A DNA stretch of 24,000 bases, taken from Candidatus Uhrbacteria bacterium RIFOXYA2_FULL_40_9 (GTDB lineage: Bacteria; Patescibacteriota; Patescibacteriia; UBA9934; GWF2-40-263). Numbering within the stretch: position 1 is the first letter of the stretch; every line of letters starts with the position of its first letter. The notes below the pieces were generated by a model. It did no database searches. It was not told the origin of the DNA and saw only the letters and a list, made by a program, of their open reading frames with translations. The stretch is taken from contig MGEY01000052.1 of assembly GCA_001791615.1 (NCBI GenBank), forward strand, positions 1 through 24,000. The letters are read 5' to 3'. Positions 6,441 to 24,000 of the stretch are shown here, in pieces. The position numbers and the translations under genes were made by a program.

Positions 6441-7691
6441 TTACATCATCTTTTTCCGAATAAAGGCAGGGATTTCAATTTCATCTTCTTCTTCCTTCTT
6501 TTTTGTTTGTTGTGCAGACGTCATCGGACTTGCGGTCATCACCGGAGGTTTTGATTCAACACGCTCTTGTACAACAGGTGCAAATTCTTGTTGCCTTGCT
6601 TGTGGTGTGTACCCAAAAGAGGCTTTTCTTTTTGCACGATATTCCTCTTCTTCACGAATACGGAGAAGTGTACTTGGGGGAGTCCAAGTTCCTTGTGCTT
6701 GAACTTCTACGGATCCTGGTGTTGCGGCACGACGTTCTCGACTATCAAATCCAGTGGCGACTACTGTAATACGAATATCTTCTCCCAAAGTTGGATCAAT
6801 ATTTGCTCCAAAAATTACCTTTGCATCCTCATCTGCAGAACCCGTAATGACTTTTGCTGCCTCAGCAACCTCATGCATCCCTAGATTTTCACTTCCTGTA
6901 ATAGTGAATAAAATTCCTTTTGCGCCATCGATTGAGAGTTCAAGAAGAGGACTTGCAATGGCTTGCTTTGCGGCTTCAACTGCACGATTTTCTCCTGAAG
7001 CTTTTCCAATTCCCATCAAAGCAGAACCTGAACTTGCCATAATTGCCTTAACGTCCGCATAATCTACATTGATAAGTCCTGGAACAGTAATCAATTCTGC
7101 GATCCCTTGGACACCTTGACGCAAGACATCATCAACCACACAAAAAGCATCTACCAGAGAGGTTTTTTTATCAATGATTTGAAGGACACGATCATTAGGA
7201 ATTGTGATAATGGCATCCACATGTTGAAGGAGCTTTTCAAATCCTTCATCAGCAATACGACGTCGTTGAGCTCCTTCAAAAGAAAATGGTTTTGTGACAA
7301 CAGCAACTGTTAAAGCACCCATGTCTCTTGCAAGTTTTGCAATTTCAGGAATTGCTCCTGTGCCTGTCCCCCCTCCAAGACCGCAAGTTAAAAAAATCAT
7401 GTCAGAACCCGTCAAAACTTCGCGAAGTTCATTCTGTGTTTCTTCTGCAGAACGCATGCCAATTTCTGGATTCATTCCTGCTCCCAAACCACGCGTGATT
7501 GTCTTTCCAATCGCGATCTTTTTAGGAGCTTCGTTTTGATTCAAAGCCTGAACATCAGTGTTCACAGCAATGAAATCCACCCCCTTGATATTGTTTCGAA
7601 TCATGCGATTCAAAGAAGCTCCACCTCCTCCTCCAATTCCAACGACTTTGATCTTTGCAAATGTTTCAATGTCAGGTTTTACTTGTGCCAT
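6441..7691 (-). CDS. ftsZ: Cell division GTPase FtsZ
   Basis: IKVVGIGGGGGASLNRM, GLGGGTGTGAIP (tubulin signature), a long linker, and the C-terminal peptide EIPAFIRKKMM (FtsA/ZipA-binding type). ATG 7691 is preferred because it leaves 12 residues before IKV. The track start is TTG at 7712. Confidence 0.96.
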   Translation of the reverse strand: MAQVKPDIETFAKIKVVGIGGGGGASLNRMIRNNIKGVDFIAVNTDVQALNQNEAPKKIAIGKTITRGLGAGMNPEIGMRSAEETQNELREVLTGSDMIFLTCGLGGGTGTGAIPEIAKLARDMGALTVAVVTKPFSFEGAQRRRIADEGFEKLLQHVDAIITIPNDRVLQIIDKKTSLVDAFCVVDDVLRQGVQGIAELITVPGLINVDYADVKAIMASSGSALMGIGKASGENRAVEAAKQAIASPLLELSIDGAKGILFTITGSENLGMHEVAEAAKVITGSADEDAKVIFGANIDPTLGEDIRITVVATGFDSRERRAATPGSVEVQAQGTWTPPSTLLRIREEEEYRAKRKASFGYTPQARQQEFAPVVQERVESKPPVMTASPMTSAQQTKKKEEEDEIEIPAFIRKKMM

Positions 7692-7756
7692 AAATTGTTT
7701 CAAACTGAACAAATCAATTGTTCAAAAATAGCTTTCTTAAGCTGAAATACTTCTTA

Positions 7757-7785
7757 AATTTACTGAGTCATCAAGGTACTGTCAA
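7757..7785 (-). promoter_or_regulatory. Putative sigma-70-type promoter for ftsZ
   Basis: Minus strand TTGACA (rc 7780-7785), a 17-nt spacer, then TAAATT (rc 7757-7762). It lies between the ftsA terminator and the ftsZ start. Confidence 0.5.
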
Positions 7786-7833: not shown

Positions 7834-7864
7834 CAAAAACAAAAAACAGGAGATCTTCCTGTTT
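7834..7864 (-). terminator. Rho-independent terminator downstream of ftsA
   Basis: Minus strand reads AAACAGGA-agatc-TCCTGTTT followed by TTTGTTTTTG, about 28 nt after the ftsA stop. Confidence 0.75.
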
Positions 7865-7891
7865 CTTATGTTATCCACATTTAAACATCTT

Positions 7892-9148
7892 CTAAGGTCT
7901 TAGACTAGAAAAAAACTTTTTAATTGATCCTGTTAGTTTATCTGCTCGTTTTAACGTGGAAAAAATCTTCCCAAACCCATGTCCCTTTTCCCCTCGCATT
8001 TGTCTTCCCCAAAGTACAAGTCCAATAGCTGTACTCATCGCAGGATCAGAAACACGATCAATCACTGATGTCACTCCAATAGGAATTCCAGATGAAACAG
8101 GAAGTCGCAGTGTTTGTTTTGCTGCCTCGAGAATACCAGAAAGCTTTGCCCCTCCTCCAGTGAGAATCACTCCAGCAGGAAGCATTCCTGAACGATCAAT
8201 GCTTTCAAGCTCTCTATCAACATGTTCAAAAATTTCTTGAACACGTGCTTGTGTGATATCTGCAATAAATCGACGACCAATATACTCCTCTTCCATGGCT
8301 CCCAATTCTGCAAGATTAATTTGATCTTTCTTAGACACTTCTTCTGGCAAGGCTGTGGCATAACGAAGTTTGACTTGTTCTGCGACTTCAATAGACGTTC
8401 GTAAACCTATCGCAATATCTGAGGTAATATGATCACTTCCAATAGGTAAAACTGCTGAGTGTAAAATATCCCCTTCTTCAAAAACTACTAGACTCGTTGT
8501 GGAAGCTCCAATATTCACAATACACACTCCTAATTCTTTCTGACGACTAGAAACGACACTTTCTGCTGTTGCTAAAATGGAAAAAACAACATCCTCAATA
8601 TCAAGCCCGGTCCGATAGACACACTTGGTCAAATTCTTTATTTGAGAGCTTAGCCCTTGAATAATAAGGGCATCTACTTCAAGACGAATTCCATTCATTC
8701 CTACAGGATCTTTAATACCATGCTGACCATCCACAATAAAACTCTTTGGAATCACATGGAGAATTTCATAATTGGTCGGAGTAGCAACAGTCCGTGCAGC
8801 TTCAATAGCTCGCTCAACATCATCATCCTGGATTTCTCCATCATGGCGAGCAACTCCCACAACTCCACGGCTTTCTTGCGCGATTATGTGACTTCCGCTA
8901 ATTCCAACCCAAGCAGAATTGATCGGAAGACCCGTAATACGTTCGGCTTGTTCTAAAGCTTTAGAAACAGAAGAAACCGCATCTTCTAAATTCGTAATGG
9001 TGCCTTTATGAACTCCTTTTGAAGGGGATTCAACTGCTCCAATCACATGAATTTGTTCCTTTCCATCTGGAGAAGGGACCAGTTTTCCAACCGCAATACG
9101 TACTGCATGCGATCCGATGTCTAATCCTGTATAGAGTTCTTCTGACAT
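7892..9148 (-). CDS. ftsA: Cell division protein FtsA (actin-like ATPase)
   Basis: MSEELYTGLDIGSHAVRIAVG..., DIEDVVFSILATAE, VNIGASTTSLVVF, VILTGGGAKLSGI. The C-terminal amphipathic tail GSIKKFFSSL is typical of the FtsA membrane-targeting helix. Confidence 0.95.
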   Translation of the reverse strand: MSEELYTGLDIGSHAVRIAVGKLVPSPDGKEQIHVIGAVESPSKGVHKGTITNLEDAVSSVSKALEQAERITGLPINSAWVGISGSHIIAQESRGVVGVARHDGEIQDDDVERAIEAARTVATPTNYEILHVIPKSFIVDGQHGIKDPVGMNGIRLEVDALIIQGLSSQIKNLTKCVYRTGLDIEDVVFSILATAESVVSSRQKELGVCIVNIGASTTSLVVFEEGDILHSAVLPIGSDHITSDIAIGLRTSIEVAEQVKLRYATALPEEVSKKDQINLAELGAMEEEYIGRRFIADITQARVQEIFEHVDRELESIDRSGMLPAGVILTGGGAKLSGILEAAKQTLRLPVSSGIPIGVTSVIDRVSDPAMSTAIGLVLWGRQMRGEKGHGFGKIFSTLKRADKLTGSIKKFFSSLRP

Positions 9149-9206: not shown

Positions 9207-9572
9207 CTAAAACAAGGAGAGAATATGGGGAAGAAAAATAATCACCCCAATCAATGCAGCTATAAAAGATGATACAAGAACTGCTCCAGCCATCATATCT
9301 TTCATATCTTTCACAGCTGGATGAATCCGTGGCTTAAATGTATCGATGATTCTTTCAAAAACACTGTTGATAAGTTCCAAAACAAGCACTGAACCAACAA
9401 GCAAAAACAAAATAATTCTTTCAAACACGACAAGATCAAAAACCATAGCAAGTAGGAGAACAAGACATCCAGAAAACAGTTGAATACGAAAACTTTGTTC
9501 TGTAAAAAAAACAAGTCGAATTCCTCGAAAGGCATGGGAAAAACTATGAAAAAGTTGTCTGACTTTAATCAT
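9207..9572 (-). CDS. dgkA: Diacylglycerol/undecaprenol kinase family (DgkA-like) integral membrane protein
   Basis: 121 aa with three hydrophobic helices. Motifs FRGIRLVFFTEQSFRIQL, LELINSVFERIID and VKDMKDMMAGAVLV match the prokaryotic DAGK family. ATGA overlap with the ybeY stop, the classic ybeY-dgkA order. Confidence 0.85.
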   Translation of the reverse strand: MIKVRQLFHSFSHAFRGIRLVFFTEQSFRIQLFSGCLVLLLAMVFDLVVFERIILFLLVGSVLVLELINSVFERIIDTFKPRIHPAVKDMKDMMAGAVLVSSFIAALIGVIIFLPHILSLF

Positions 9573-10042
9573 ACTGGAGAAATTATACCAAAGGTAGAAA
9601 GGAGCTTTTTTTGAAGAATAAACATTTTTTCTGCTTGTTTTATGGTTTGATGTTCGTGTCCGAAAAGATGAAGAGACCCATGAATCAGGAGAAAAATAAG
9701 TTCTTTTCTAGCAGAATGTTTTGCTTCTTTTGCTTGCTTCTTTGCTTGAGGATAACACAATAAAATTTCTCCCATCACTTTTTCCATCTCTGGAAAGGCG
9801 TCTTTATTATCCTCAAAAGAAAAAGAAAGAACATCCGTCACACGATCTACCCCACGATACGTTTTATTATACGCTTTTATCTCCTTTTCACTGATAAAAG
9901 CAACGGAAATAAACACAGGTTTTGTTACTTTTAATTGATGACTTATCTCCTCTGCAACCTGTTTTATCATTCTTTCTGGAAGATGTTGCCCTCCGGAAAG
10001 TTGTTTTTGATTAAAAATGAACGTAATCACAAAATTATTCAA
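9569..10042 (-). CDS. ybeY: rRNA maturation endoribonuclease YbeY
   Basis: Zinc motif HGSLHLFGHEH, plus TDVLSF and EILLCYP. The start is either TTG 10042 (8-nt overlap with the upstream gene) or GTG 10030 (4 nt after its TAA). Confidence 0.9.
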   Translation of the reverse strand: MNNFVITFIFNQKQLSGGQHLPERMIKQVAEEISHQLKVTKPVFISVAFISEKEIKAYNKTYRGVDRVTDVLSFSFEDNKDAFPEMEKVMGEILLCYPQAKKQAKEAKHSARKELIFLLIHGSLHLFGHEHQTIKQAEKMFILQKKLLSTFGIISPV

Positions 10043-11024
10043 AAAAAGAAAAACTATTCAACATCATCTGAAAAGTTTGCAAATAATCAACGGTTCCTTT
10101 AATGCCTGTATCATAGCGAAATCGATAAACTCTTTCCCCTATCTCTACATAGGCTTTCAACTGATCTTCTGTTATCAACATCTGATATCCCTGTTTGGTC
10201 ACAGAAGTATAAACGTTTTCAATACCTTCACGTTGAAACTCCTCAGTAACATCTTCTAAACTTCGATCTATGAGAGAGAGATAAAATTGTTCACCAGTTG
10301 TTGACTCAAGACGAATCTCATCTGTTTCTTCTAAAGACCAAGTGGTTGGATGGTAAAAAAAGAAATTCCCTGCCCAAGTAAACACCGTAACCGTTTTTGA
10401 ATCTAAAAGAGTGAGAGGAGAAAGTCCTTTTGGATGATAGCCATGAAAAACTTCATTTCCGTCAAGAAATCCATCCGCATCTGTATCTGGTAAACGACTA
10501 TCTGTTCCATAAATAAGTGTTTCTTCAAGATCTGTAAGTCCATCACTATCAGAATCTTTTCCTGGAGAAACAGGTGCGGTAAAAAGATCAGAAGGCTCTT
10601 CAATGACAGGTTCTTCAAAAACTTCTTCAATAGGTGGAATAACCTCCTCTGTTTGTTGAGGGGGACGTGCTGTGGTAACAGGCTCTTGAGAAATATCTTC
10701 TTGTTTTGGAAGACTTTTTACAAGAATAAAACCAGCAATAGCAAATCCAACAATCACAATCGCTCCAACAATGATCAATTTTTTAGAAATGAGTGTAACT
10801 CTCTTCCCTGAAGGTTTTTGTGCAGGCATCTTAGGAAGTTCTTTCTTTTTTTCGGGAGGAAGAGTTTTTTTCACAGGAGTTGAAATCACCTCTTTTTGTT
10901 TAATAGTTCCTGAAGCCCCATGTCGATACTCTGACGGCATGGTAAATATAAGCGAATCCCCAGTGGTTGCTGGCTTTTGCGTGTTTGGTGGAAGTTGAAT
11001 ACGTGGCATTTCATTCTCTGGCAT
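10035..11024 (-). CDS. Single-pass membrane protein with TSP3-like Asp-rich Ca-binding-type repeats and an unassigned about 140-aa C-terminal domain
   Basis: The track ORF (to 11147) overlaps the upstream gene by 100 nt, so it is trimmed to ATG 11024 (alternative 11009). TM helix LIIVGAIVIVGFAIAGFILV, a P/E-rich linker, DSDSDGLTDLEE and DTDADGFLDGNEV (10440-10560), then a beta-rich tail (TVFTWAGNFFFYHPTTWSLEE...). Confidence 0.8.
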   Translation of the reverse strand: MPENEMPRIQLPPNTQKPATTGDSLIFTMPSEYRHGASGTIKQKEVISTPVKKTLPPEKKKELPKMPAQKPSGKRVTLISKKLIIVGAIVIVGFAIAGFILVKSLPKQEDISQEPVTTARPPQQTEEVIPPIEEVFEEPVIEEPSDLFTAPVSPGKDSDSDGLTDLEETLIYGTDSRLPDTDADGFLDGNEVFHGYHPKGLSPLTLLDSKTVTVFTWAGNFFFYHPTTWSLEETDEIRLESTTGEQFYLSLIDRSLEDVTEEFQREGIENVYTSVTKQGYQMLITEDQLKAYVEIGERVYRFRYDTGIKGTVDYLQTFQMMLNSFSFFE

Positions 11025-11046
11025 ACAAACCGTTGAGGAAAAAGAA

Positions 11047-11703
11047 TTACAAAGTAGGGACTTCAAATAATTTACCTGATCCATTTGGATTGTAACCAGC
11101 ATCAACTTCTGCTCCATCAAGGTATCCATCTTCATCTGTATCCGCATCTAAAGGATCGGTTTCGTAAAGAGTGATTTCTTCTTTATCAAACAGTCCATCT
11201 TTGTCTGTATCACTGCTTCGGAAATCTGTTCCAAGCTCGGCCTCCTCAGCATCTGTTAATCCATCTTTATCTGTATCCAATCCTGGAATCTCTTGTGGTT
11301 CTGTTTCCACTTCTTCTTGCACTACAGGAACTTCTTGAGTGGTTGTTTCTTCAACGGATTTTGAAACATCTGGGAGTGTTGTTGATTTTGGAGTACGCGA
11401 AGAAAGAAGAAGATAAGAAAGAGAGGCGGCTGCGACAATCACCACCAAAATAGCAATGAAAAGAATAATGATTTTCAACACTAGTGTTTTTTCTTTTGTG
11501 TTCAAAGGAGCAGATGACTCAAGGGATGGATGCTTTGGTAAAGAAAGTGGTGGTGCTACTGGCTTCATCGTGGGATTCTTCACAGGAGTAGAGTGTGAAG
11601 AAGTTTCTGGTAAAGAAGCTGTGGGTGGAACAACAGAAGGACCGTCTTGCTCTGTTTGAGCAAAAATGTCTTCAGGTTCTTTAGGGGTAAGATCATCAAA
11701 CAT
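11047..11703 (-). CDS. Single-pass membrane protein with three to four TSP3-like repeats
   Basis: N-terminus MFDDLTPKEPEDIFA, a P/S-rich cytoplasmic segment and TM helix IIILFIAILVVIVAAASLSYLLL. An acidic linker is followed by DTDKDGLTDAEE, DTDKDGLFDKEE and DTDEDGYLDGAEVDAGYNPNG (11080-11290). Confidence 0.8.
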   Translation of the reverse strand: MFDDLTPKEPEDIFAQTEQDGPSVVPPTASLPETSSHSTPVKNPTMKPVAPPLSLPKHPSLESSAPLNTKEKTLVLKIIILFIAILVVIVAAASLSYLLLSSRTPKSTTLPDVSKSVEETTTQEVPVVQEEVETEPQEIPGLDTDKDGLTDAEEAELGTDFRSSDTDKDGLFDKEEITLYETDPLDADTDEDGYLDGAEVDAGYNPNGSGKLFEVPTL

Positions 11704-11752
11704 AGAAAAATGTTAGAAAATATGAAATTTTATTGATTATTGTGACCCTTTT

Positions 11753-12613
11753 TTATTTGCCTGCTACTATGAGCGGACTATACCCTGCTCTCACTTCTGC
11801 TCCATCAAGGTATCCATCCCCATCTGTATCTGGATTAAGGGGATCTGTAAAATAGGTGTTTACCTCTTCTCCGTCAGAAAGACCATCACTGTCAGAATCT
11901 GCATTGACATCACTTGTCCCAAAACGCATTTCTTGCAATTCATCAAGCCCATCTCCATCACGATCACCAATTCCAACCACATCTTCACAAGAAGCAATAA
12001 GATTTGTATCTGTAATTTGCTGACAAATATCTGGATCTTTTGCCATAATGGCCTGCTCCATTAAAAGAACTTGAGCACAATAAGAAGAATCTCCTGTGCG
12101 CTCAAAACAATTCTCTGAGGTCAAAGGTCCTGCAAGAACACGCAAACATCCTTCTTGTTTTTCTGCATCCAAAATATTCTGACAATCCTTTTCCTTTCCG
12201 CTTGCAAGCGCTTGAGAAAGGTAAAGAGCATCCGCACATATTTGTTGAGTTTGAACATCTATAATCTCTTTACAAAAATCCACATTCTCACGATCACGTG
12301 CCACACTCCAGACACATTCATCAAAAGCATCTCCTTCAAGAACTTTGCATATCTCTACGGCTCCGAGCTTTTGTGCATAAGAACCAATAGCCCGTGTTTG
12401 ACAAGTTTCTTGATTTTCAACCCCTTCACATTCCTTCAAAAGGGCTTGAACTTCCGATTGTTGAGTTGCTTCAAGTACTTGATGGGTTTTCCAGGATCGT
12501 GTGAAAAGAATGGTTCCAAGAATAAGCACAATCACAAACACAATGGCACCAACAACCCATTTCCAAGAAATTTCGTGTGAAGGCAAACTTCTTATTGGTT
12601 CAAGTGTATTCAT
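11753..12613 (-). CDS. Single-pass membrane protein with paired-cysteine repeats followed by TSP3-like repeats
   Basis: ATG 12613 forms an ATGA overlap with the TGA stop of the giant ORF (12610-12612). The track start is TTG 12622. TM helix WVVGAIVFVIVLILGTILF. About six repeats of C-x10-13-C (DFCKEIIDVQTQQIC, DCQNILDAEKQEGC, DICQQITDTNLIASC...). Then DRDGDGLDELQE, DSDSDGLSDGEE and DTDGDGYLDGAEVRAGYSP. Confidence 0.8.
   Translation of the reverse strand: MNTLEPIRSLPSHEISWKWVVGAIVFVIVLILGTILFTRSWKTHQVLEATQQSEVQALLKECEGVENQETCQTRAIGSYAQKLGAVEICKVLEGDAFDECVWSVARDRENVDFCKEIIDVQTQQICADALYLSQALASGKEKDCQNILDAEKQEGCLRVLAGPLTSENCFERTGDSSYCAQVLLMEQAIMAKDPDICQQITDTNLIASCEDVVGIGDRDGDGLDELQEMRFGTSDVNADSDSDGLSDGEEVNTYFTDPLNPDTDGDGYLDGAEVRAGYSPLIVAGK
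11793..11830 (-). repeat. 38-nt segment 36/38 identical to 11105-11142 (the 3' ends of two adjacent TSP3-repeat genes)
   Basis: acttctgctccatcaaggtatccatc[cc/tt]catctgtatc occurs in both genes and encodes DTD(G/E)DGYLDGAEV. This indicates paralogy or gene conversion between neighbours. Confidence 0.85.
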
Positions 12614-15600
12614 AAAGGACAATATTCAAATTGGAAATCTTCAAAACGCATGGTTCCTTCTCCATTAAACTCAACACGCAAAGGAATCGTGAATTCAGAA
12701 GATTCACAAATAAATGCTTCTGGGAATGGGAGAGATCTATCATTTCCTTCAGAAATAACACCGGTGGTTGTGATGGTTGTGCTTCCACTTTCCGTTGTAA
12801 GGGTCATTGTGGCTCCGACGATCGCATCTGCAATGGCTTCGTACATGGTTGTGATTCCTTCGGCGTCAGAAGCTTGATAGGCATATTGTGTCGCATGACA
12901 ATCGCTTGCATCACTCCAATCTGTTCCACATTCCTCACTGGAACAATGTGCCATATAGCCTTCAACGGAAGAGCTAGTCGCAATCACTGCGGAATAAAAT
13001 TGAATACTTGGATTTGCCCCAATAAGCTCTTCACGAATTTCTTGAATACATCCACTCTTATCCGTACCACAAGGTAATCCATCTAAATAAACCGTTGGAG
13101 CTCCATCTGAAAGAAGCACGATAATTTTTGTCGGCGCTGTTGAAGAACTAACAAATAAATCAATCGCCTCTTGAAGACCTGAAGCAGTTGGTGTGCCAGT
13201 ATCCAATCTTGTGAGATATCCCTCAATCGTGGACACTAGTGAACTTTCAGATGTGCTAAATGTTTGATCAATGGTAACAGCCGTGCCATTAAAACTTACA
13301 AGCCCAATATGAAGCGTGACCCCCAAAGCACTCGCGGCATCAAATAATTCTGCTATAGAAGCACTTGTTGCTTCAACAACAGGATAAATACGTGTTGATT
13401 CAATCTCAATAAAACCATCGGCGCCAAAAGGAATCCTCGTTCCTTCTGGGTTCACATACATACTATCAGACAAATCTGTCACAAAGACGATATCAATATC
13501 ATTTGGAACAACATCATCTGCTTCAATATCAGCGGTAAGGGAGACTCCTACAGAACAAGCAGGAAGATAGATCACTCCATTATCAGGTGATTCTCCGGAT
13601 AAATAACGATATAAATCAATATATTGCTGTTTACTTGCCCCAGAAAGTTCACTTTGAACTTGCAGAGAAACGGTTTCATAAGAGAAAGGACAGCTAGATG
13701 CACAATCACTTGCACAAACGGGTTGCACACACGTTCCCCCTGTAGCACAACTTTGTGCATCTGCTCCTGTAGCACCAATCGTACAATAATCACCGTTATC
13801 CTCGCCTCCATTGCAAACACCTACATTCAAACAGGTATATATTCCACTTGTTGTCCCAACAGCACTCGAAGCACAGGTATTACTCACCGCACGAGTATCT
13901 GCATCAAAATAACGATAAGGCAAAACGGTTCCATCACAATATTCTCCTCCATTAATGGTTCCGTCTCCACAATAAGCGCCTGAACTTGTCTTATACTCAC
14001 AAGTGACCGTGCAATACTGACACATCCCTCCGTAAGAAGCCGTGCAAAGATCACCATTCTCGCTTCCTTGATCACAAGATTCTACGCCGGTATACACATA
14101 ATCGTCTCCACAAACATTCCATTCACAGGTATTCAAACAGGCATCATTGTTGCTCGTGTTCCCGTCATCACAAATTTCATCACCTTCTAAAACCCCATTT
14201 CCGCATTGTTGATCTCCGATTACACAAGCAGACCACGTATTCCAAACACATCCAGAACTACAGGTGCGATAACGATAGGCTTGATATCCATCAATGGTTC
14301 CACAAGCAACATACGTTCCTCCACAAGTAGATCCATCCTCACAATCAGCGCTTGTAGTGCAGGTATTTCCATCAGCACAAAGTGCTCCTTCCCATTCTTC
14401 ATACTCCCCATCACAAACTTCTGTTCCATTAAGAATTTGATCTCCGCACGTTGGACCAGGAGTAGAACAATCAAAGGCACAACTTTGCGCATAGGTACTC
14501 ACATATTGCCCATTGGATCCTCTTGTAGACGTGATGTCACAATGTGTATACGCCCAACTACTTGTATCTGCTTTAACCGTGCTCCAATTGGCTGTGGTTC
14601 CACAATCACATTGTTCTCCACCAGCTAAATATCCATCACCACAATAAAAGGAAGTGGTGTAAGTACAATTATCATCGCAATACCCATAGGTTCCATTCAA
14701 TACTCCGTCATCACAAATTTCTGTTCCTTCAACCGTGCCATTTCCACAACTATAAGCTATGCACTCTGTCCCCGCTGTCTCGGCTTCCAAAGCTGTTTGA
14801 TATCCTAAACAATCATCATCACAACGAATAGTGATCAAACCACTCACAACCGTTACTCCATCATCAGCAAGAGTAGTGCAACTTGCGGTGTCTGTATCCC
14901 CAAGTTCACAAGTTTCAATAGAAGGATTCAAAATCCCATCTCCACAAAGTCCTGTGTTTCCTACGGTTGTCCCGGAACAATACATTTCTGTTGAAATAAA
15001 TCCTATTTGCAATGGAATGGTTGTATATCCACCGCTATATTCGACACTGAGCGTTGCACTATCTGTGGAATCTGTATCAATCGGATAGGCCCAAGCGCCT
15101 CCGTTATATTCAAGCTCAAGAGAAAGAATAAACTCTTCTCCACCAATACCGCGATATCCATACACATGAGATCCACTTGGACATTTAAACAATCCTTGCG
15201 TGCCATTCCAACAAGAATCAGAATCATACCCATCATCTGTACATTGATAAAACGCATTAAGAGGATCAACAGGAAGAGTTTCTTGAAGTTCATTTGAAAG
15301 TACCGCATTCCAAGAAGGCCAATTACTAATCGTCATGGAAGGAATATAGGACCCCGCACTGATAAGTGGAACATCTGGAACACAGGTCTCTGTTCCAAGA
15401 CAATCATCATCCTGCGTACAACTTGTATCTGTGGTTACAGAACAATGAGCATACGTTTCTCCATGAGTATTGATTATGTCAAGAATATCTACGGCATCAG
15501 AAAGACGCTTGGTATCGCGTTGTAACTTGGCTTTTTCTGCATCACAATAAGAAGTTCTTGCAGTTCCAAGAGGACAACTGTTATCCGTTACTCCTGTGCA

Positions 15601-21600: not shown

Positions 21601-22812
21601 TATATCTCCTCCACAGTTCAGACCGGTTTCTCCCAAATCAGTATCAATTACATCATTGGCACAATTTGCTGCTCGAAGAGTAATAGTGATGCGATCAGAA
21701 GTATCACTGTTCCCTGCACAATCTGATCCAACTGCATAAATCGCATAGGTTTCATTTGTGAGATATCCTTCTGTATTCCACTCTCTTGAAGTATCTGAAT
21801 TGAAATAGTTTAACGCAGAAAGAACCCCATACACACTCAGATCTAATCCTGCGGTTTCTACTTCCTCAGAATCAACATAAAAATTAACAGAAGAAACACC
21901 CACATCGTCAACGGCTTCTGTTTGTAAAAGTTCATTCTCTCCTGTGGCATACACATTTCCTTCATCTTCTGGAGCTTCCATGGTCATGGTCGGCCCGCTG
22001 ACATCAATCGCGGCATCTGCTCCAATCGTAAAAGAATAAGAACAAGGATAGGAAGAACTACAAGAGAGACTTCTTCCACTGGTACTGCGCAAAATAGTCG
22101 GACTTACCGTAGCAATATAAGAAGTACTGGAAGAAAAACAATGTTCTGTTTCAAAACCTGTTTCTGAACAAAATGCATCTGGCGTAAATGTTACGGTATA
22201 ACCTGAGGTCGTAAATGTTCCTTCAACCTCTTCTCCTCCATCCACTTCAATGCTGATCGCGCTTTCCACGGTTGAGGAAGACACTCTTTGAGAAAAAACA
22301 AATTGTAATTGCAAATTCTTCACTGACTCTGCGCAATCTGTATTCAAAGACGCAAGATAAAAGGTTGAAGAAGTACTTGGATTTGGATCTTCTGAATAAT
22401 CCGTTGGATCTTCTGTGATAATTCTTCCTGTTGCTTCTTCAAGGGAACGAAGAACAAATTGGGTGATGGTGAACGCAGAAAGAACAATAACCAAACCGAT
22501 CAAGGCATTGATGATCATTCCTCTTGCTTTGGTCACACGTTCTTTGTCTCCTCCTGCTGTCATCCAAAGAAATCCGGCATACACCACAAACACCACAGCA
22601 ACTATTCCAAGCAAAGAAATAGCAGTTCTAATGAGACGGGCAATAATGACCGTAATATCCACACTTGTGGTAAATCCGGCAATTTCTCCAAAGGTCTCCA
22701 TTTGTGATTGCATTTCTGTTTGCGCGAATGTTGGCAAAGCAACACAGAAGCCTGTGATCAAAAGCATGCCAAAAAGGATGCTTGCTAATTTTTTAGATCG
22801 TAAACGGCACAT
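12610..22812 (-). CDS. Giant (3400 aa) pilin-anchored, cysteine-rich, multi-domain surface protein with C-terminal vWA domain
   Basis: A single uninterrupted 10.2-kb reading frame with ATG at 22812. Recognisable motifs run end to end, which argues against a chance ORF. See the domain-level entries below. Confidence 0.9.
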   Translation of the reverse strand: MCRLRSKKLASILFGMLLITGFCVALPTFAQTEMQSQMETFGEIAGFTTSVDITVIIARLIRTAISLLGIVAVVFVVYAGFLWMTAGGDKERVTKARGMIINALIGLVIVLSAFTITQFVLRSLEEATGRIITEDPTDYSEDPNPSTSSTFYLASLNTDCAESVKNLQLQFVFSQRVSSSTVESAISIEVDGGEEVEGTFTTSGYTVTFTPDAFCSETGFETEHCFSSSTSYIATVSPTILRSTSGRSLSCSSSYPCSYSFTIGADAAIDVSGPTMTMEAPEDEGNVYATGENELLQTEAVDDVGVSSVNFYVDSEEVETAGLDLSVYGVLSALNYFNSDTSREWNTEGYLTNETYAIYAVGSDCAGNSDTSDRITITLRAANCANDVIDTDLGETGLNCGGDISSEYYCGACGGDACTEDSQCASGTCEEGICVTVPKISRVRAGNGAPGNLITISGEGFGTDPGSITFLGTESGDEVEVSAYSCGGTLAWQADQIIVQVPEGAIDGPIQVTVVSSDESEGDYDRTDDDYGPYITDFDVNAIERPGLCSITPSTGEGNDDVTILGDNLGALQGSSALYFDYYEPTSYLHWETSEISAVTPLLDDGAYDVQVFAGDYFCETSGDVCSEDVDCGESLSESCVTAWCSETLEACSEDEDCGTGEGTCESIRQGSNEIDFTVSTTSSDAPPVISYVETGWQACFEGEHDGMVCTEDEDCGTGTCEDAPNWGPLGQYVTIYGTEFGHADGLVYFTNNTGSSLDGVTAIGDSVFPVACGSEYWTDTSILIKVPEQYSTATEDILETGSHTIHIYRGTDGQTSESVAFEVIAGEPGPSICLLDPDSGPVGSLVDIYGENFQTTDGSVTYYLNQTIDSSLYTSWDDGSVLETEVPDNAQTGPVTVTSAEGYRSNPLNFQVGNCVEDSSICSLQEECCSDGTCASFTTGGCPETVIDSHYAYKFTTRTIANTPRVRVACSSTEGIASPSPWEGWSPAESVCVNADIGATFDMDMKGSSLTSSNLVLEKCSAIVGGTCVTASGRTFTCTDVCDTLEEVPFVWSFNVGTRGFTASHAEDFETSTTYQVTLLGGDEAGRIQADASAGEGYLEEDFTWSFTTAPTDASCEVGDVYVSPDPYTARTLNESVGYLASLVSDADECVLSPCTGETLYWSSSDSSAKVSEPSAVTGSCQKIVTALDETSPGIPALIESQVTSASTQPVGDADLIIDFSDPEVGDYVPNCSTACVNAGIYAEFEALMDTSLFNSSNVKLYQCEDALCAPGELTEVTCASVGTATTQKVTISTSACPSLEANTHYRVWLSGNLLSTSGVALADSGSNYGGPFSENAYYPTDFSWIFTTKNSDISCGIDRIELDPEQATLDRIGARQVYEAVPYGAPDDCAVSGQVLQSSSYSWEPWLSTQPTVAEMLESGAISLSTDLPAWCSASCLNTGATVSLLDPVCGDGITDYNGDGYHEAEDCDGEGGCSDACFWEGTSACPFACEDSGATCTTDASCSTFFCQIGGAVCTTDASCTTYACETSGLSCLTDADCDTETEEVCAEVTDVCVEQTDICSLVPGGCCGDGFVSVGEECDDSNSVSGDGCSLACQNEGSTTTCGDGRVDYYRGTGGEDCDDGNTSSGDGCSSRCLFEGAVAITDIEATCGDGDIGNGEDCDDGNTSSGDGCSSRCLFEGASACVFACFDGTSYGVNCISDGDCESTDTCQAISTPCCGDGITDYNGDDLNDAEDCDLFDVEAGDGCSAICLNEGASVDGLIPSYCGDGLQSTYEECETTSSISSGAFAVAQVSETVAEEVDPITHYAVTTIQTEAERVTAEGLLSVECSCQTDADCGSPEESYGCGTGGCCYLRPETGSVYPESGATNVCQNTALWVEFSQDVDLDSLDPSGNGTDPQIYLEYTGTVCPTGWETTVYVQPPEGVFARAWHWIREQVLSFFGREVSAETTVCAVPVTYQKSDVSDGGVRVSVRYSGILEEGATYRLVVLGDSDLTDAIDEGVLNTFGVGLVNPSEIMTSFTVGNEICSLDQVVVVDFGRTDYAEYESASEEFFTEIGEVHYFMATAYHLDGAVQEEITSSEDYAWEWTWGSTEETVVTTTTASESGSDELALDDHDAFVTAEGEDGGATVFAQATVTIDTYEFSTEHLCETSGISCETSDDCDTGAGEACTVQRETVQGELPIWAMLCENPWISGNNYHYLDSSTNFSFSYCRDEGDEGTDDDLPALGNSTGMPIEVHSISSSIYQELLFQVQGTSDALGVRVVTNDDYTSPLQWYEDQGFSGSPSQTTLDGYQAVEEGTTQYVLATNQSGNSIYPNMYVISYNEDAGEESLEIFDRILRNWQFNANTDVISDVNLCANTNGYIHNASGDFIACEWDGDCGGTEICEAQANETYACSITGESCTGVTDNSCPLGTARTSYCDAEKAKLQRDTKRLSDAVDILDIINTHGETYAHCSVTTDTSCTQDDDCLGTETCVPDVPLISAGSYIPSMTISNWPSWNAVLSNELQETLPVDPLNAFYQCTDDGYDSDSCWNGTQGLFKCPSGSHVYGYRGIGGEEFILSLELEYNGGAWAYPIDTDSTDSATLSVEYSGGYTTIPLQIGFISTEMYCSGTTVGNTGLCGDGILNPSIETCELGDTDTASCTTLADDGVTVVSGLITIRCDDDCLGYQTALEAETAGTECIAYSCGNGTVEGTEICDDGVLNGTYGYCDDNCTYTTSFYCGDGYLAGGEQCDCGTTANWSTVKADTSSWAYTHCDITSTRGSNGQYVSTYAQSCAFDCSTPGPTCGDQILNGTEVCDGEYEEWEGALCADGNTCTTSADCEDGSTCGGTYVACGTIDGYQAYRYRTCSSGCVWNTWSACVIGDQQCGNGVLEGDEICDDGNTSNNDACLNTCEWNVCGDDYVYTGVESCDQGSENGDLCTASYGGMCQYCTVTCEYKTSSGAYCGDGTINGGEYCDGTVLPYRYFDADTRAVSNTCASSAVGTTSGIYTCLNVGVCNGGEDNGDYCTIGATGADAQSCATGGTCVQPVCASDCASSCPFSYETVSLQVQSELSGASKQQYIDLYRYLSGESPDNGVIYLPACSVGVSLTADIEADDVVPNDIDIVFVTDLSDSMYVNPEGTRIPFGADGFIEIESTRIYPVVEATSASIAELFDAASALGVTLHIGLVSFNGTAVTIDQTFSTSESSLVSTIEGYLTRLDTGTPTASGLQEAIDLFVSSSTAPTKIIVLLSDGAPTVYLDGLPCGTDKSGCIQEIREELIGANPSIQFYSAVIATSSSVEGYMAHCSSEECGTDWSDASDCHATQYAYQASDAEGITTMYEAIADAIVGATMTLTTESGSTTITTTGVISEGNDRSLPFPEAFICESSEFTIPLRVEFNGEGTMRFEDFQFEYCPL
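12815..13500 (-). other. Giant protein C-terminal von Willebrand factor A domain with intact MIDAS
   Basis: DIVFVTDLSDSM (DxSxS), LDTGTPTASGLQEAIDLF (MIDAS Thr) and KIIVLLSDGAPT (MIDAS Asp). This is followed by an about 65-aa beta-like tail ending FEYCPL. Confidence 0.8.
13690..14950 (-). other. Giant protein cysteine-rich repeat block II
   Basis: CGDGILNPSIETCE, CGNGTVEGTEICDDGVLNGTYGYCDDNC, CGDGYLAGGEQCDCG, CGDQILNGTEVCDG, CGNGVLEGDEICDDGNTSNNDACLNTC, CGDDYVYTGVESCDQGSENGDLC and CGDGTINGGEYCDG, followed by a Cys-dense linker down to CASDCASSCPF. Confidence 0.7.
17480..18459 (-). other. Giant protein aa about 1452-1777: cysteine-rich repeat block I (CGDG-x-CDDGN-x-GDGCS-x-C, DUF4215/Myxococcus Cys-rich-repeat-like)
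   Basis: CGDGITDYNGDGYHEAEDCDGEGGCSDAC, CCGDGFVSVGEECDDSNSVSGDGCSLAC, CGDGRVDYYRGTGGEDCDDGNTSSGDGCSSRC, CGDGDIGNGEDCDDGNTSSGDGCSSRC, CCGDGITDYNGDDLNDAEDCDLFDVEAGDGCSAIC, CGDGLQSTYEECE, plus C-x-TDA-x-C mini-repeats. Confidence 0.7.
17764..17958 (-). repeat. Two 72-nt direct repeat copies (17764-17835 and 17887-17958), 71/72 identical, period 123 nt, inside the giant ORF
   Basis: Both copies read tgctccctcaaaaagaca[a/g]cgagaagaacatccatctccagaacttgtatttccatcatcacaatcttctcc. They encode the identical peptide EDCDDGNTSSGDGCSSRCLFEGA twice. Other repeat units of the same family are diverged at the DNA level. Confidence 0.9.
20071..21501 (-). other. Giant protein aa about 438-914: four IPT/TIG-like beta-sandwich modules separated by short Cys-rich inserts
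   Basis: PKISRVRAGNGAPGNLITISGEGFG...IIVQVPEGAIDGPIQVTV; PGLCSITPSTGEGNDDVTILGDNLG...; GQYVTIYGTEFG...ILIKVPE...; PSICLLDPDSGPVGSLVDIYGENF...ETEVPDNAQTGPVTVT. Confidence 0.7.
22438..22812 (-). other. Giant protein aa 1-125: signal peptide plus two-helix TrbC/VirB2-type (T4SS_pilin, PF18895-like) membrane hairpin
   Basis: The signal peptide MCRLRSKKLASILFGMLLITGFCVALPTFA|Q is followed by ARLIRTAISLLGIVAVVFVVYAGFLWMTAGGDKERVTKARGMIINALIGLVIVLSAFTITQFVL. The pattern is hydrophobic helix, GG-D/N-x-E-x3-K-A, hydrophobic helix, as I recall it for CPR and Gram-positive conjugative-type pilins. Confidence 0.65.
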
Positions 22813-22843: not shown

Positions 22844-24000
22844 TTATGGAACAGGTAAAACAAACCCAGAAGTAGACGTTTCTGTTTCTCCATCAGTCAC
22901 ACAAGGGGTTGACTGACGTTCTCCATCACAACAATACACTTCTCCAGATGCAATTCGACCATCATCTTCTAAAGAAGTACATCCAATGATAGTGCTAGAT
23001 GAAGCAGAAGGCCCATAAGCAGGATACATACAAATCTGCCAGCTACTTTTCACTCCATTTTCAATAACAGGATAGTAATCCCACCCTCCATCTGTTTGAC
23101 TCACAAAAGTTGGGTGATTCATCGTGATAAGAGAATAAGTTTTATCTGTACTTACTTCATTTCGAAGAGAAAACCACATTTCATACAATGGATCAGGCCA
23201 CAGAGAAAGAGCTTCGCTATTTAAGGTGGAAGATTTCATGGTGGTATTAAAAGAAATCGTCACAGGTTGTTGCTGAATGACATCCCCTTCACTAATTCCT
23301 GGATCTATTAAGGTGATTTCTGGAACCGTATCGTTCACATTGTCTGTAGTATCAAATTCCCAAGAATAATCATCATTCGTTATTGTGGTTATTTCACCTA
23401 CTAGAGAAACTCCATCTGTATCTGATCCTGCGGCTTGTCCATCTCCATCTCCATCTAAAGAATTTCCACATACATCTATAAGTCCGTCATACTCTGTTCC
23501 TCGAGGAACTGCTTGTGGTGCATCATCCCCCACAGAAGCGGCATGAGCTTCTACCACAATGGTTTCAAGAGGTGGAAGACAATAAATGGTGTCACCACAA
23601 GGATCTTCCCCACAAGCATCAAAGGTGGTGAAGCCAACAGTTCGATACCCATTACTAATTTCATAGGTCCCTTCAACCAGAGAAGGAACGGAATCAGAAA
23701 TTTCAATATTGGAAAAATAATCCCCTAGCTCTATAGAATAAACACCAGTTGCGGCAACAGGATCCATGGCTTCATTAAAAGTCATTTCAATGGTGATGTT
23801 GCGATCGTATGGAGTGGTTGATTCAACCGGAATCACAGAAACGACTTGTGGAGGTGTGAGATCAACTTCTGTTGAAACTTCAAACGTCCATTCGTAGCCA
23901 TCAGAATAGCGTCCGGAAAAAGCAAGCGTTCCATCTGCCTTTTCAATGGTTGTTTTAAGAACAATGGTATAGTTTGTATCTTCAAGGGGACTTCCTAACA
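22844..24000 (-). CDS. Large Ig-like (SbsA/Big_5-type) surface protein, C-terminal part (5' end beyond the window)
   Basis: The track starts it at GTG 23836, but I translated the frame upstream and it stays open to 24000 (...YEWTFEVSTEVDLTPPQVVSVIPVES...). DLTPPQVVSVIPVESTTPYDRNITIEMTFNEAMDPV and VPEITLIDPGISEGDVIQQQPVTISFNTTMKSSTL are Big_5-type module starts. Cys-rich C-terminus. The stop lies 31 nt before the giant ORF start. Confidence 0.8.
   Translation of the reverse strand, partial: LGSPLEDTNYTIVLKTTIEKADGTLAFSGRYSDGYEWTFEVSTEVDLTPPQVVSVIPVESTTPYDRNITIEMTFNEAMDPVAATGVYSIELGDYFSNIEISDSVPSLVEGTYEISNGYRTVGFTTFDACGEDPCGDTIYCLPPLETIVVEAHAASVGDDAPQAVPRGTEYDGLIDVCGNSLDGDGDGQAAGSDTDGVSLVGEITTITNDDYSWEFDTTDNVNDTVPEITLIDPGISEGDVIQQQPVTISFNTTMKSSTLNSEALSLWPDPLYEMWFSLRNEVSTDKTYSLITMNHPTFVSQTDGGWDYYPVIENGVKSSWQICMYPAYGPSASSSTIIGCTSLEDDGRIASGEVYCCDGERQSTPCVTDGETETSTSGFVLPVP

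Follow-up and report, generated by a model that had tools for sequence, protein, structure and literature searches.

Three families of predicted membrane proteins with thrombospondin type 3-like repeats are encoded in conserved order beside a giant gene in Uhrbacteria

In eukaryotes, the type 3 repeats of thrombospondin and COMP engage the metal ion-dependent adhesion sites (MIDAS) of integrins. In Myxococcus xanthus, the COMP-like thrombospondin type 3 (TSP3) domain of CglD has been proposed to engage the VWA MIDAS of the adhesin CglB, and the function is Ca-dependent (bioRxiv 10.1101/2023.10.19.562135). Both the repeat, as a Pfam family, and the combination of TSP3 with VWA, in Myxococcus, are already known. 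Bacteria of the Candidate Phyla Radiation (CPR) are thought to live attached to hosts, and their surface machinery is little understood. The present analysis concerns three adjacent genes, called A, B and C, and the giant gene next to them in a 24,000-nucleotide (nt) stretch of Candidatus Uhrbacteria bacterium RIFOXYA2_FULL_40_9 (contig MGEY01000052.1 of assembly GCA_001791615.1, positions 1 to 24,000; hereafter the window). An earlier note on this DNA had read A, B and C as a triplet of paralogous TSP3-repeat proteins. The reading that we prefer, and hold with middling confidence, is that the locus is a five-gene conserved surface module of Uhrbacteria, in which two pilin-anchored proteins (one of 630-657 amino acids (aa) with a Big_5 domain, the other the giant of 3400 aa) are accompanied by A, B and C as partners of the giant.

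All genes of the region lie on the minus strand. The elements on which the argument turns are the following.

22812-12610, minus strand: giant gene, an open reading frame (ORF) of 3400 aa, whose orthologues precede A in 64 of 66 species loci.
12613-11753, minus strand: gene A, an ORF of 286 aa with a short N-terminus, one transmembrane (TM) helix, a helical stalk, a predicted Cys-stapled alpha-helical repeat, three TSP3 repeats and a GYSP tail.
11703-11047, minus strand: gene B, an ORF of 218 aa with an N-terminal peptide, a Pro-rich cytoplasmic region, one TM helix, an acidic linker, three TSP3 repeats and a GYNPNGSGKL tail.
11024-10035, minus strand: gene C, an ORF of 329 aa with an N-terminal peptide, a Pro/Lys-rich cytoplasmic region, one TM helix, an acidic/Pro linker, two TSP3 repeats and a predicted PsbP-like C-terminal domain.
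12610-12613, minus strand: ATGA overlap, in which the A start ATG (12613-12611) lies over the giant stop TGA (12612-12610).

When one genome per species was scanned with the C-family alignment, 80 loci were obtained, nearly all of them titled Uhrbacteria or Patescibacteria, and their six-frame ORFs were searched with the window proteins. The order giant-A-B-C-ybeY-dgkA-ftsA-ftsZ was kept in at least 97% of testable adjacencies, as follows.

Giant to A: kept in 64 of 66.
A to B: kept in 68 of 69.
B to C: kept in 72 of 73.
C to ybeY: kept in 74 of 75.
ybeY to dgkA: kept in 72 of 73.
dgkA to ftsA: kept in 68 of 69.
ftsA to ftsZ: kept in 63 of 63.
ftsZ to nrdR: kept in 45 of 56.
nrdR to htrA: kept in 34 of 46.
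htrA to pyk: kept in 35 of 35.
pyk to nudix: kept in 0 of 45.

These counts show that gene order is conserved more strictly from the giant gene to ftsZ than around this block, although protein identities are 35-45%. A, B and C keep their fixed places between the giant gene and the division genes in about 65-75 species of the Uhrbacteria, which are ultra-small. The linkage of A, B and C to the giant gene, which the earlier note had proposed to check by looking for scattered copies in related genomes, was thus found intact in the species loci (giant-A 64/66, A-B 68/69, B-C 72/73). The ATGA overlap described there is real as well, and the tight junction recurs elsewhere: the A start was found mostly 1-6 nt past the giant stop among 69 species, and between -8 and +12 nt in about 50 of the 69. 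This spacing is in keeping with co-transcription of the giant gene and A, and possibly with coupling of their translation. In the window, A and B are separated by 49 nt and B and C by 22 nt.

A-like proteins, carrying both the Cys repeat and TSP3, were also found in three other CPR lineages, each encoded just downstream (4-64 nt) of a large surface-protein gene (contexts L091 3116-6002, L095 6544-13560 and L087 1-2567).

P0173: A-like gene 5 nt downstream of an NHL/Vgb_lyase gene truncated at the end of the contig.
P0167: A-like gene 4 nt after the gene of a 669-aa FG-GAP protein, which is preceded by the gene of a 916-aa He_PIG protein.
P0242: A-like gene 64 nt after the gene of an 1130-aa He_PIG/NHL protein, followed by the gene of a 906-aa He_PIG protein.

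No B, C or ybeY was present near these three genes outside Uhrbacteria. These contexts indicate that at least family A has a tie to large surface proteins which does not depend on the Uhrbacteria backbone. In L091, three more unannotated ORFs (132, 273 and 479 aa) without Pfam matches lie beyond the A-like gene. The complete Uhrbacteria-type cluster also occurs in many metagenome-assembled genomes labelled 'uncultured Gammaproteobacteria bacterium' (binchicken co-assemblies; L010, L013, L016, L019, L029 and many others), and these labels are almost certainly wrong. The exact A, B and C proteins of the window are present on Candidatus Uhrbacteria (CPR/Patescibacteria) contigs from Rifle groundwater, for example LBZG01000007 of GCA_000994735.1.

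The giant protein has a signal-like segment and a VirB2-like T4SS_pilin membrane hairpin at its N-terminus; Big_5, Big_7 and TIG domains and Cys-rich DUF4215 repeats follow, and a VWA domain lies close to the C-terminus (domains from Pfam). The regions of interest in the giant gene and in the gene upstream of it are the following.

22453-22656, minus strand: T4SS_pilin domain (PF18895) of the giant, aa 53-120, 36.7 bits against a Pfam cut-off of 26.6.
13090-13494, minus strand: VWA domain of the giant, aa 3107-3241, 25.6 bits with Pfam VWA.
22844-24000, minus strand: 3' part of a second gene with T4SS_pilin and Big_5 domains (Pfam), cut by the window end; the full protein has 630-657 aa (L089 7996-9969).

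VirB2-like pilin domains are widespread in CPR (bioRxiv 10.1101/2025.01.22.634366), and the hairpin of the giant is presumed to be its membrane anchor. A gap of 31 nt separates the second pilin gene from the giant gene downstream of it, and yqeY and rpsU precede the pilin gene; the 330-aa ORF at the window end is a fragment of the latter. The surface module thus probably consists of five genes inserted between rpsU-yqeY and ybeY-dgkA. Within the VWA domain, a MIDAS-type DLSDS sequence at aa 3113-3117 (nt 13462-13476) is followed by TGTPT and LLSDG, and a D-x-[ST]-x-[ST] motif was found in 55 of 64 giant orthologues. The giants without a MIDAS-like motif in their last 700 residues were those of L012, L018, L029, L032, L061, L064, L077, L083 and L084. 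In L063, L065 and L082, the giant orthologue extends 90-340 aa beyond the usual ...YCP end and carries TSP3 repeats there, which are of the Cys-containing, eukaryote-like kind (DSDGDGxxDxxDNC). The joining of TSP3 repeats to the giant in these three species may be taken as a weak fusion-type hint that A/B/C and the giant are associated.

The identity of the repeat in A, B and C was examined with Pfam and related models. The earlier note had assigned it to TSP3 and named PF02412, the eukaryotic thrombospondin type 3 family, as the model for the check. The assignment stood by way of another family, PF18884 (TSP3_bac; gathering cut-off 25 bits), which A and B matched at 35.2 and 47.5 bits, respectively; PF02412 gave no match at E<=1 in A, B or C. 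PF18884 also matched 19 of 30 C-family members at E<=0.01, the best at 1e-7. Strict D-x-D-x-D-G-x-x-D-x-x-E motifs were located by regular expression at 239 and 262 in A, at 143, 165 and 188 in B, and at 157 and 180 in C, and A has an additional degenerate TSP3 motif, DRDGDGLDELQE, at 217. The loops recur with a period of about 23 residues, and the loop columns are invariant in the family alignments. The cassette takes the form of two or three DxDxDGxxDxxE loops followed by EVxxGYNPxGxGxL. The terminal module DTDxDG(Y/F)LDGxEVxxGYxP, ascribed earlier to two of the proteins only, proved to be common to all three, its form in C being DTDADGFLDGNEVFHGYHP. No dockerin match was obtained, and EF-hand_1, _6 and _7 gave 10.9-14.6 bits against cut-offs of 25-30 for A, B and C. 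The TSP3 cassette is a putative Ca2+ binder, with matches in sequence and structure to the Ca-binding B domain of Bap and weak ones to lanmodulin. An origin from phage or from anti-phage defence was rejected, since the PHROGs and PADLOC models yielded zero families at E<=0.01.

To what extent the three proteins are related was assessed by pairwise comparison. Significant matches were found among A, B and C by BLASTP (B against C over 173 aa at 38% identity). In profile alignments with hhalign, the homology covered 75 columns between A and B (three repeats plus tail; E 1.9e-35) and 52 columns between B and C (two repeats plus tail; E 8.5e-29). The N-termini, TM segments, linkers and extra domains were unrelated among the three. 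Homology is thus limited to the TSP3 cassette, and paralogy of the whole proteins, as the earlier note had it, was rejected. For each protein, a separate set of orthologues is present in about 70-80 species, with 35-45% identity, and, judged by these comparisons, A, B and C are distinct, old orthologous families kept across a whole CPR class. The identity of 36 of 38 nt between A (11793-11830) and B (11105-11142), pointed out before, was confirmed. Over the whole 57-nt module, A and B of the window share 46 nt (81%), the third highest value of 45 genomes. Across genomes, however, nucleotide identity of the module was 0.69 within and 0.66 between genomes, and for synonymous codons the values were 0.50 and 0.42. 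Gene conversion between A and B, or a recent duplication, was considered for the 36/38 run and set aside: the excess over the between-genome control is small and shared codon usage can explain it. The run is the upper tail of a strong conservation of the amino acids.

A single strongly hydrophobic segment of 19 residues was found in each protein (A 19-37, B 74-92, C 84-102), and the median number of TM-like segments was one across 71-81 orthologues of each family. The residues flanking this segment are richer in Lys/Arg on the N-terminal side in C (4.5 against 1.35; 81 orthologues) and in B (2.55 against 1.59), which argues for an N-terminus on the inside in both. For A, the conserved Cys pairs suggest an extracytoplasmic ectodomain with disulfides. 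A, B and C are therefore probably bitopic membrane proteins with the N-terminus in and the C-terminus out, although this topology is less direct for A. Of the common architecture proposed earlier, one TM helix and TSP3 repeats held for all three proteins; the acidic or Pro-rich linker did not hold for A, in which the TM helix runs straight into a helical stalk. The parts of A are the following.

12503-12559, minus strand: TM helix of A, aa 19-37, hydropathy 2.9.
11975-12430, minus strand: Cys-rich helical repeat of A, aa 62-213, from alignment A2 and AlphaFold2 (AF2) helices.
11774-11965, minus strand: TSP3 cassette of A, aa 217-280, PF18884 at 35.2 bits.

The AF2 model of A had a mean predicted local distance difference test score (pLDDT) of 88. 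Its helix is unbroken over aa 17-61, from the TM segment into the stalk, beyond which stacked pairs of one short and one long helix precede the TSP3 loops. The C-x(8-11)-C pairs of the repeat number six and recur about every 27 aa, and ten Cys are invariant in the family (alignment A2). The paired-Cys repeat noticed earlier in A was thereby borne out. No Pfam or NCBIfam family, the Sel1 and TPR models included, matched this repeat, and no significant fold match was found for it in the PDB by Foldseek, where the best hits (E 0.2 or worse) were to designed helical repeats. In sequence, the A-family profile (alignment A2) reached E 1.5e-6 with the B domain of Bap (7c7u/7c7r). The TSP3 part of the model superposes on that domain over 45 aa with a root-mean-square deviation of 0.8; with the whole model, the Foldseek match (E 0.43) was not significant. 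A word-indexed profile search with aa 55-214 of A (alignment A3) returned 3 proteins and missed known Uhrbacteria orthologues of A, so this low number likely reflects a limit of candidate retrieval.

Proteins B and C each carry a conserved peptide on the predicted cytoplasmic side. Their parts are the following.

11650-11703, minus strand: N-terminal peptide of B, MFDDLTPKEPEDIFAQTE (family alignment, 30 species).
11416-11484, minus strand: TM helix of B, about aa 74-96, hydropathy 3.3.
11086-11277, minus strand: TSP3 cassette of B, aa 143-206, PF18884 at 47.5 bits in 3 stretches.
10914-10955, minus strand: cytoplasmic peptide of C, LIFTMPSEYRHGAS, aa 24-37 (family alignment, 30 sequences).
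10713-10778, minus strand: TM helix of C, about aa 83-104, hydropathy 3.0, with an AF2 helix over aa 81-104.
10431-10556, minus strand: two TSP3 repeats of C, aa 157-198, most columns invariant in the family alignment.
10038-10412, minus strand: C-terminal alpha/beta domain of C, aa 205-329, AF2 pLDDT about 90.

The peptide of B is nearly invariant, with the consensus MF(D/E)x(V/L)xKxP(E/D)D(I/M)F(A/E)xT(D/E) (in short, MFD..K.PEDIF); M1 and F2 are invariant, and P10, D12 and F14 are conserved in at least 90% of the 30 species. That of C has the consensus F-x-M-P-E-x-Y-R-H-G, in which M29, P30, R34 and G36 are invariant and F27 and Y33 reach at least 90% in the 30 sequences. Among all ORFs of the 80 loci, each motif was confined to its own family.

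The C-terminal domain of C, described earlier as beta-rich, was modelled by AF2 as an alpha/beta domain over aa 205-329, with an antiparallel sheet flanked by helices. Foldseek matched it in the PDB to PsbP (9gnw_P, E 9.8e-5; 2vu4, 1.7e-4), Tsi3 (3wa5_B, 1.3e-3) and Apa (5zx9), with E values ranging from 1e-4 to 1e-2, and TM-scores on PsbP and Tsi3 were 0.45-0.56 on the target. These values point to a PsbP/Mog1-like fold in the model of this domain. No Pfam family, PsbP (PF01789) included, matched it in the window protein or in 30 family members. The start of C was placed at 11024 because M1 is invariant in the C-family alignment. The protein is over-extended in public gene calls (349 and 355 aa) and in the mechanical ORF from 11147 (370 aa), and such longer calls (window 10035-11147, minus strand) share about 35-100 nt with the 3' end of B. 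In the source annotations, the proteins appear as 'hypothetical protein' or under stray names such as 'S-layer domain protein' and 'RodZ'. The name RodZ, found on one Joint Genome Institute entry for a homologue of C, was not upheld, as neither a helix-turn-helix nor a RodZ model matched C or 30 family members. The word-indexed search gave 403 matches for the C family, and the C profile retrieved 995 clusters at E<=1e-30 from a representative library (50% identity), in which full-length members of 310-370 aa were mixed with multi-TSP3 giants.

Downstream of C lie ybeY, dgkA, ftsA, ftsZ, nrdR, htrA and pyk. The linkage to ybeY-dgkA-ftsA-ftsZ, the cytoplasmic peptides of B and C and the second pilin-anchored protein upstream of the giant are absent from the earlier note. 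The features of this block are the following.

9569-10042, minus strand: ybeY, Pfam YbeY at 5.7e-36.
9207-9572, minus strand: dgkA (diacylglycerol kinase), Pfam at 8.2e-29.
7892-9148, minus strand: ftsA, Pfam FtsA and SHS2_FTSA.
7839-7869, minus strand: terminator-like hairpin just past ftsA, a 13-pair stem with a T run, the longest stem downstream of the giant start (consensus scan).
7757-7785, minus strand: promoter-like site before ftsZ, 10/12 match.
6441-7712, minus strand: ftsZ (Pfam), with the C-terminal peptide EIEIPAFIRKKMM.

The ybeY ORF start overlaps the C stop in the window, where the public ybeY call starts 4 nt past that stop, and the C stop and ybeY start overlap by 4 nt in many species. 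All stems that the scan listed between the giant start and the ftsA end lie within the giant gene: three are weak, with 5 pairs each, and one has 10 pairs but lacks a proper T run. With no strong hairpin before the ftsA end, the genes from the giant to ftsA could be one transcription unit, of which the hairpin at 7839-7869 is a possible end. The counts of promoter and terminator sites were not above shuffle expectation, and operon boundaries were therefore taken from spacing. The C-terminal peptide of FtsZ, (E/D)(I/L)EIPAFIRKKMM (window 6441-6480), is almost invariant in 62 Uhrbacteria species, and the linker before it is hypervariable and Pro/Gln-rich.

If A, B and C are partners of the giant in a surface module, the giant, once exported, would stay in the membrane by means of its pilin hairpin, and A would be made from the mRNA of the giant, its start lying over the giant stop. 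The Cys-stapled helical repeat of A and its TSP3 loops would then bind the C-terminal region of the giant. B and C would supply further TSP3 cassettes, C bringing in addition a PsbP-like protein-binding domain, and the acidic, Ca-loaded loops could bridge to the MIDAS-bearing VWA domain of the giant or to the wall. A Ca-dependent scaffold role of A, B and C for the giant, which the earlier note had thought plausible, is putative. A specific contact between the TSP3 loops and the MIDAS of the giant VWA would follow the likeness to COMP-integrin and CglD-CglB, and we regard it as unlikely; the FG-GAP propellers encoded beside A-like genes would fit the integrin-like theme. Several observations weigh against a partnership of this kind. 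As ybeY, dgkA, ftsA and ftsZ are retained equally, synteny alone cannot single out the giant as the partner of B and C. Since the giant has its own membrane anchor, there is no obvious need for anchoring partners, and the conserved cytoplasmic peptides of B and C are unexplained by a purely extracellular role. A strict DxSxS was present in only 33 of 64 giants, and a MIDAS-like motif was absent from the last 700 aa in 9 of 64. Moreover, C of the window fell below the PF18884 threshold (15 bits, E 0.023), and the Lys/Arg bias around the TM helix of A was neutral (2.54 against 2.30).

The conserved peptides of B and C bring the division genes into question. It may be that B, C and perhaps A dock on FtsA or FtsZ through their N-terminal peptides, so that their ectodomains work on the wall or surface where the cell divides and the giant gene is a co-regulated neighbour or its product is positioned through B/C. 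The adjacencies C-ybeY (74/75), ybeY-dgkA (72/73), dgkA-ftsA (68/69) and ftsA-ftsZ (63/63) speak for such a link, as do the overlap of the C stop with the ybeY start in many species and the position of the first strong hairpin (13 pairs) only past ftsA. The near-invariant peptides, joined to the TM helix by Pro-rich disordered linkers, have a layout typical of docking motifs, and the MPExYRHG of C bears a loose likeness to the core P-x-x-(Y/I)-R of the C-terminal peptides of FtsZ, of which the Uhrbacteria form is EIPAFIRKKMM. However, C does not conserve the hydrophobic +2 position, which makes this likeness weak, and mimicry of the FtsZ peptide by C is only a weak lead. The housekeeping pair ybeY-dgkA is not known to act in division, and the surface module looks like an insertion into rpsU-yqeY ... 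ybeY-dgkA, a Firmicute-like block of ancestral origin. A-like genes elsewhere travel with surface-protein genes and not with ftsA. A division link is thus improbable in our view, though it and the partnership with the giant can both be true. Their combination, an integrin-like transmembrane linkage in which the TSP3 cassettes hold the giant VWA/MIDAS outside and the B/C peptides dock on FtsA or FtsZ inside, appears quite unlikely; if true, attachment to a host or surface would be mechanically or spatially coupled to the division cytoskeleton.

Other readings need no specific partner or bring in a different machine. A, B and C might be general Ca2+-binding wall-spanning or spacer proteins whose position reflects strong local conservation of gene order: TSP3_bac cassettes recur widely among unrelated envelope proteins, hundreds of matches in the OmpA family have only the cassette in common with them, and synteny is fairly good all the way from the giant gene to pyk. 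Yet giant-A-B-C retention is 97-99%, against 74-80% and then 0% in the flanking housekeeping genes, the junction of 1-6 nt between the giant gene and A is conserved, and A-like genes again stand beside big surface-protein genes in lineages with different neighbours, all of which leaves this reading doubtful. As regards recent tandem paralogues, one ancestral gene would have been duplicated twice in this genome and the copies would have gained different extra parts. The common layout of N-terminus, TM helix, linker and TSP3, the 36/38 nt shared by A and B and the BLASTP match of B and C (173 aa, 38%) would agree with this; the separate orthologues of each family in about 70-80 species, the restriction of hhalign homology to 52-75 columns and a within-genome identity barely above that between genomes make it hardly credible, and an ancient shared origin of the cassette alone is possible. 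The T4SS_pilin domains in both upstream genes raise the question of a type IV secretion system (T4SS), with A, B and C as bitopic subunits like VirB8 or VirB10, and bitopic N-in proteins with Pro-rich regions do recall VirB10. In this case, too, the evidence runs mostly the other way: no Pfam or NCBIfam match to VirB8, VirB10 or another T4SS family was obtained (only the TM-only CagC at E 0.13), the domain of C is PsbP-like and not NTF2-like, and neither virB4 nor another T4SS gene is present in 30 kb around the cluster. We consider a T4SS accessory role very improbable.

Returning to the surface module, its interest lies in a gene order fixed across a whole class, in three families without Pfam coverage outside the repeat, and in two short cytoplasmic motifs. 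If the TSP3 cassettes engage the VWA domain of the giant, this would be the second bacterial case of a thrombospondin-integrin-type logic after Myxococcus CglD/CglB, and the first in a monoderm, host-dependent lineage. If the B/C peptides bind FtsA or FtsZ, attachment would be tied to division. Should neither binding hold, three 'hypothetical proteins' in hundreds of genomes would still gain an annotation. In the literature searched on Uhrbacteria and CPR, no description of the cluster was found: neither of its three families and their two N-terminal motifs, nor of the Cys-stapled repeat in A or the PsbP-like domain in C, nor of the five-gene module in its fixed place beside ybeY-dgkA-ftsA-ftsZ.

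The individual parts can be set beside known proteins. The Sel1-like Hcp proteins of Helicobacter are disulfide-bridged helical repeats with a period of 36 aa. The ectodomain of A resembles them in being predicted as stacked helix pairs, each with a conserved Cys pair, but differs in its period of about 27 aa and in having neither a Sel1/TPR Pfam match nor a significant PDB fold match. FtsN and PilN are bitopic proteins that dock on the actin-like ATPases FtsA and PilM, respectively, through short N-terminal peptides. B and C share with them the layout of N-terminal peptide, disordered linker, TM helix and ectodomain, and ftsA lies in the same conserved block; their peptides, however, are unrelated to RDY of FtsN or INLLP of PilN. 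The domain of C shows no similarity in sequence to proteins of the PsbP/Mog1/Tsi3/Apa fold (9-16% identity), and it would belong to a membrane-anchored CPR surface protein, not to photosystem II or to type VI secretion immunity.

With regard to the repeat, the OmpA-family TSP3 proteins of Bacteroidota and Ignavibacteria have the same DxDxDGxxDxxE repeat of 22-23 residues, and hundreds of them share 50-65% identity over the cassette. This similarity covers 15-30% of the query, and A, B and C lack the beta-barrel (PF13505) and the peptidoglycan-binding OmpA_C domain (PF00691). In Uhrbacteria, the cassette is instead carried by probable N-in single-pass anchors of a monoderm CPR lineage, always with 2-3 repeats, a GYNPxGxGxL tail and family-specific domains. 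Thrombospondin and COMP are alike in the Asp-rich chemistry of the Ca2+ loops and in the integrin-like parts nearby (the VWA domain of the giant, and FG-GAP propellers beside A-like genes); the repeats of A, B and C are without the disulfide-forming Cys of the eukaryotic type 3 repeats, and no L-lectin C-terminal domain is present. The Myxococcus CglD/CglB/MtsD apparatus likewise combines TSP3/COMP-like repeats and a VWA-MIDAS adhesin in one surface apparatus, and the giant carries Cys-rich DUF4215 repeats of the Myxococcus type. In contrast, A, B and C scored 12.7-25.8 bits against the CglD/MtsD models (NCBIfam NF033765 and NF047639; cut-offs 400/800), over the repeats only. CglD unites about 12 repeats with a VWA domain of its own in a single outer-membrane lipoprotein of a diderm, whereas in Uhrbacteria repeats and VWA domain reside on different proteins that are predicted to be anchored in the cytoplasmic membrane.

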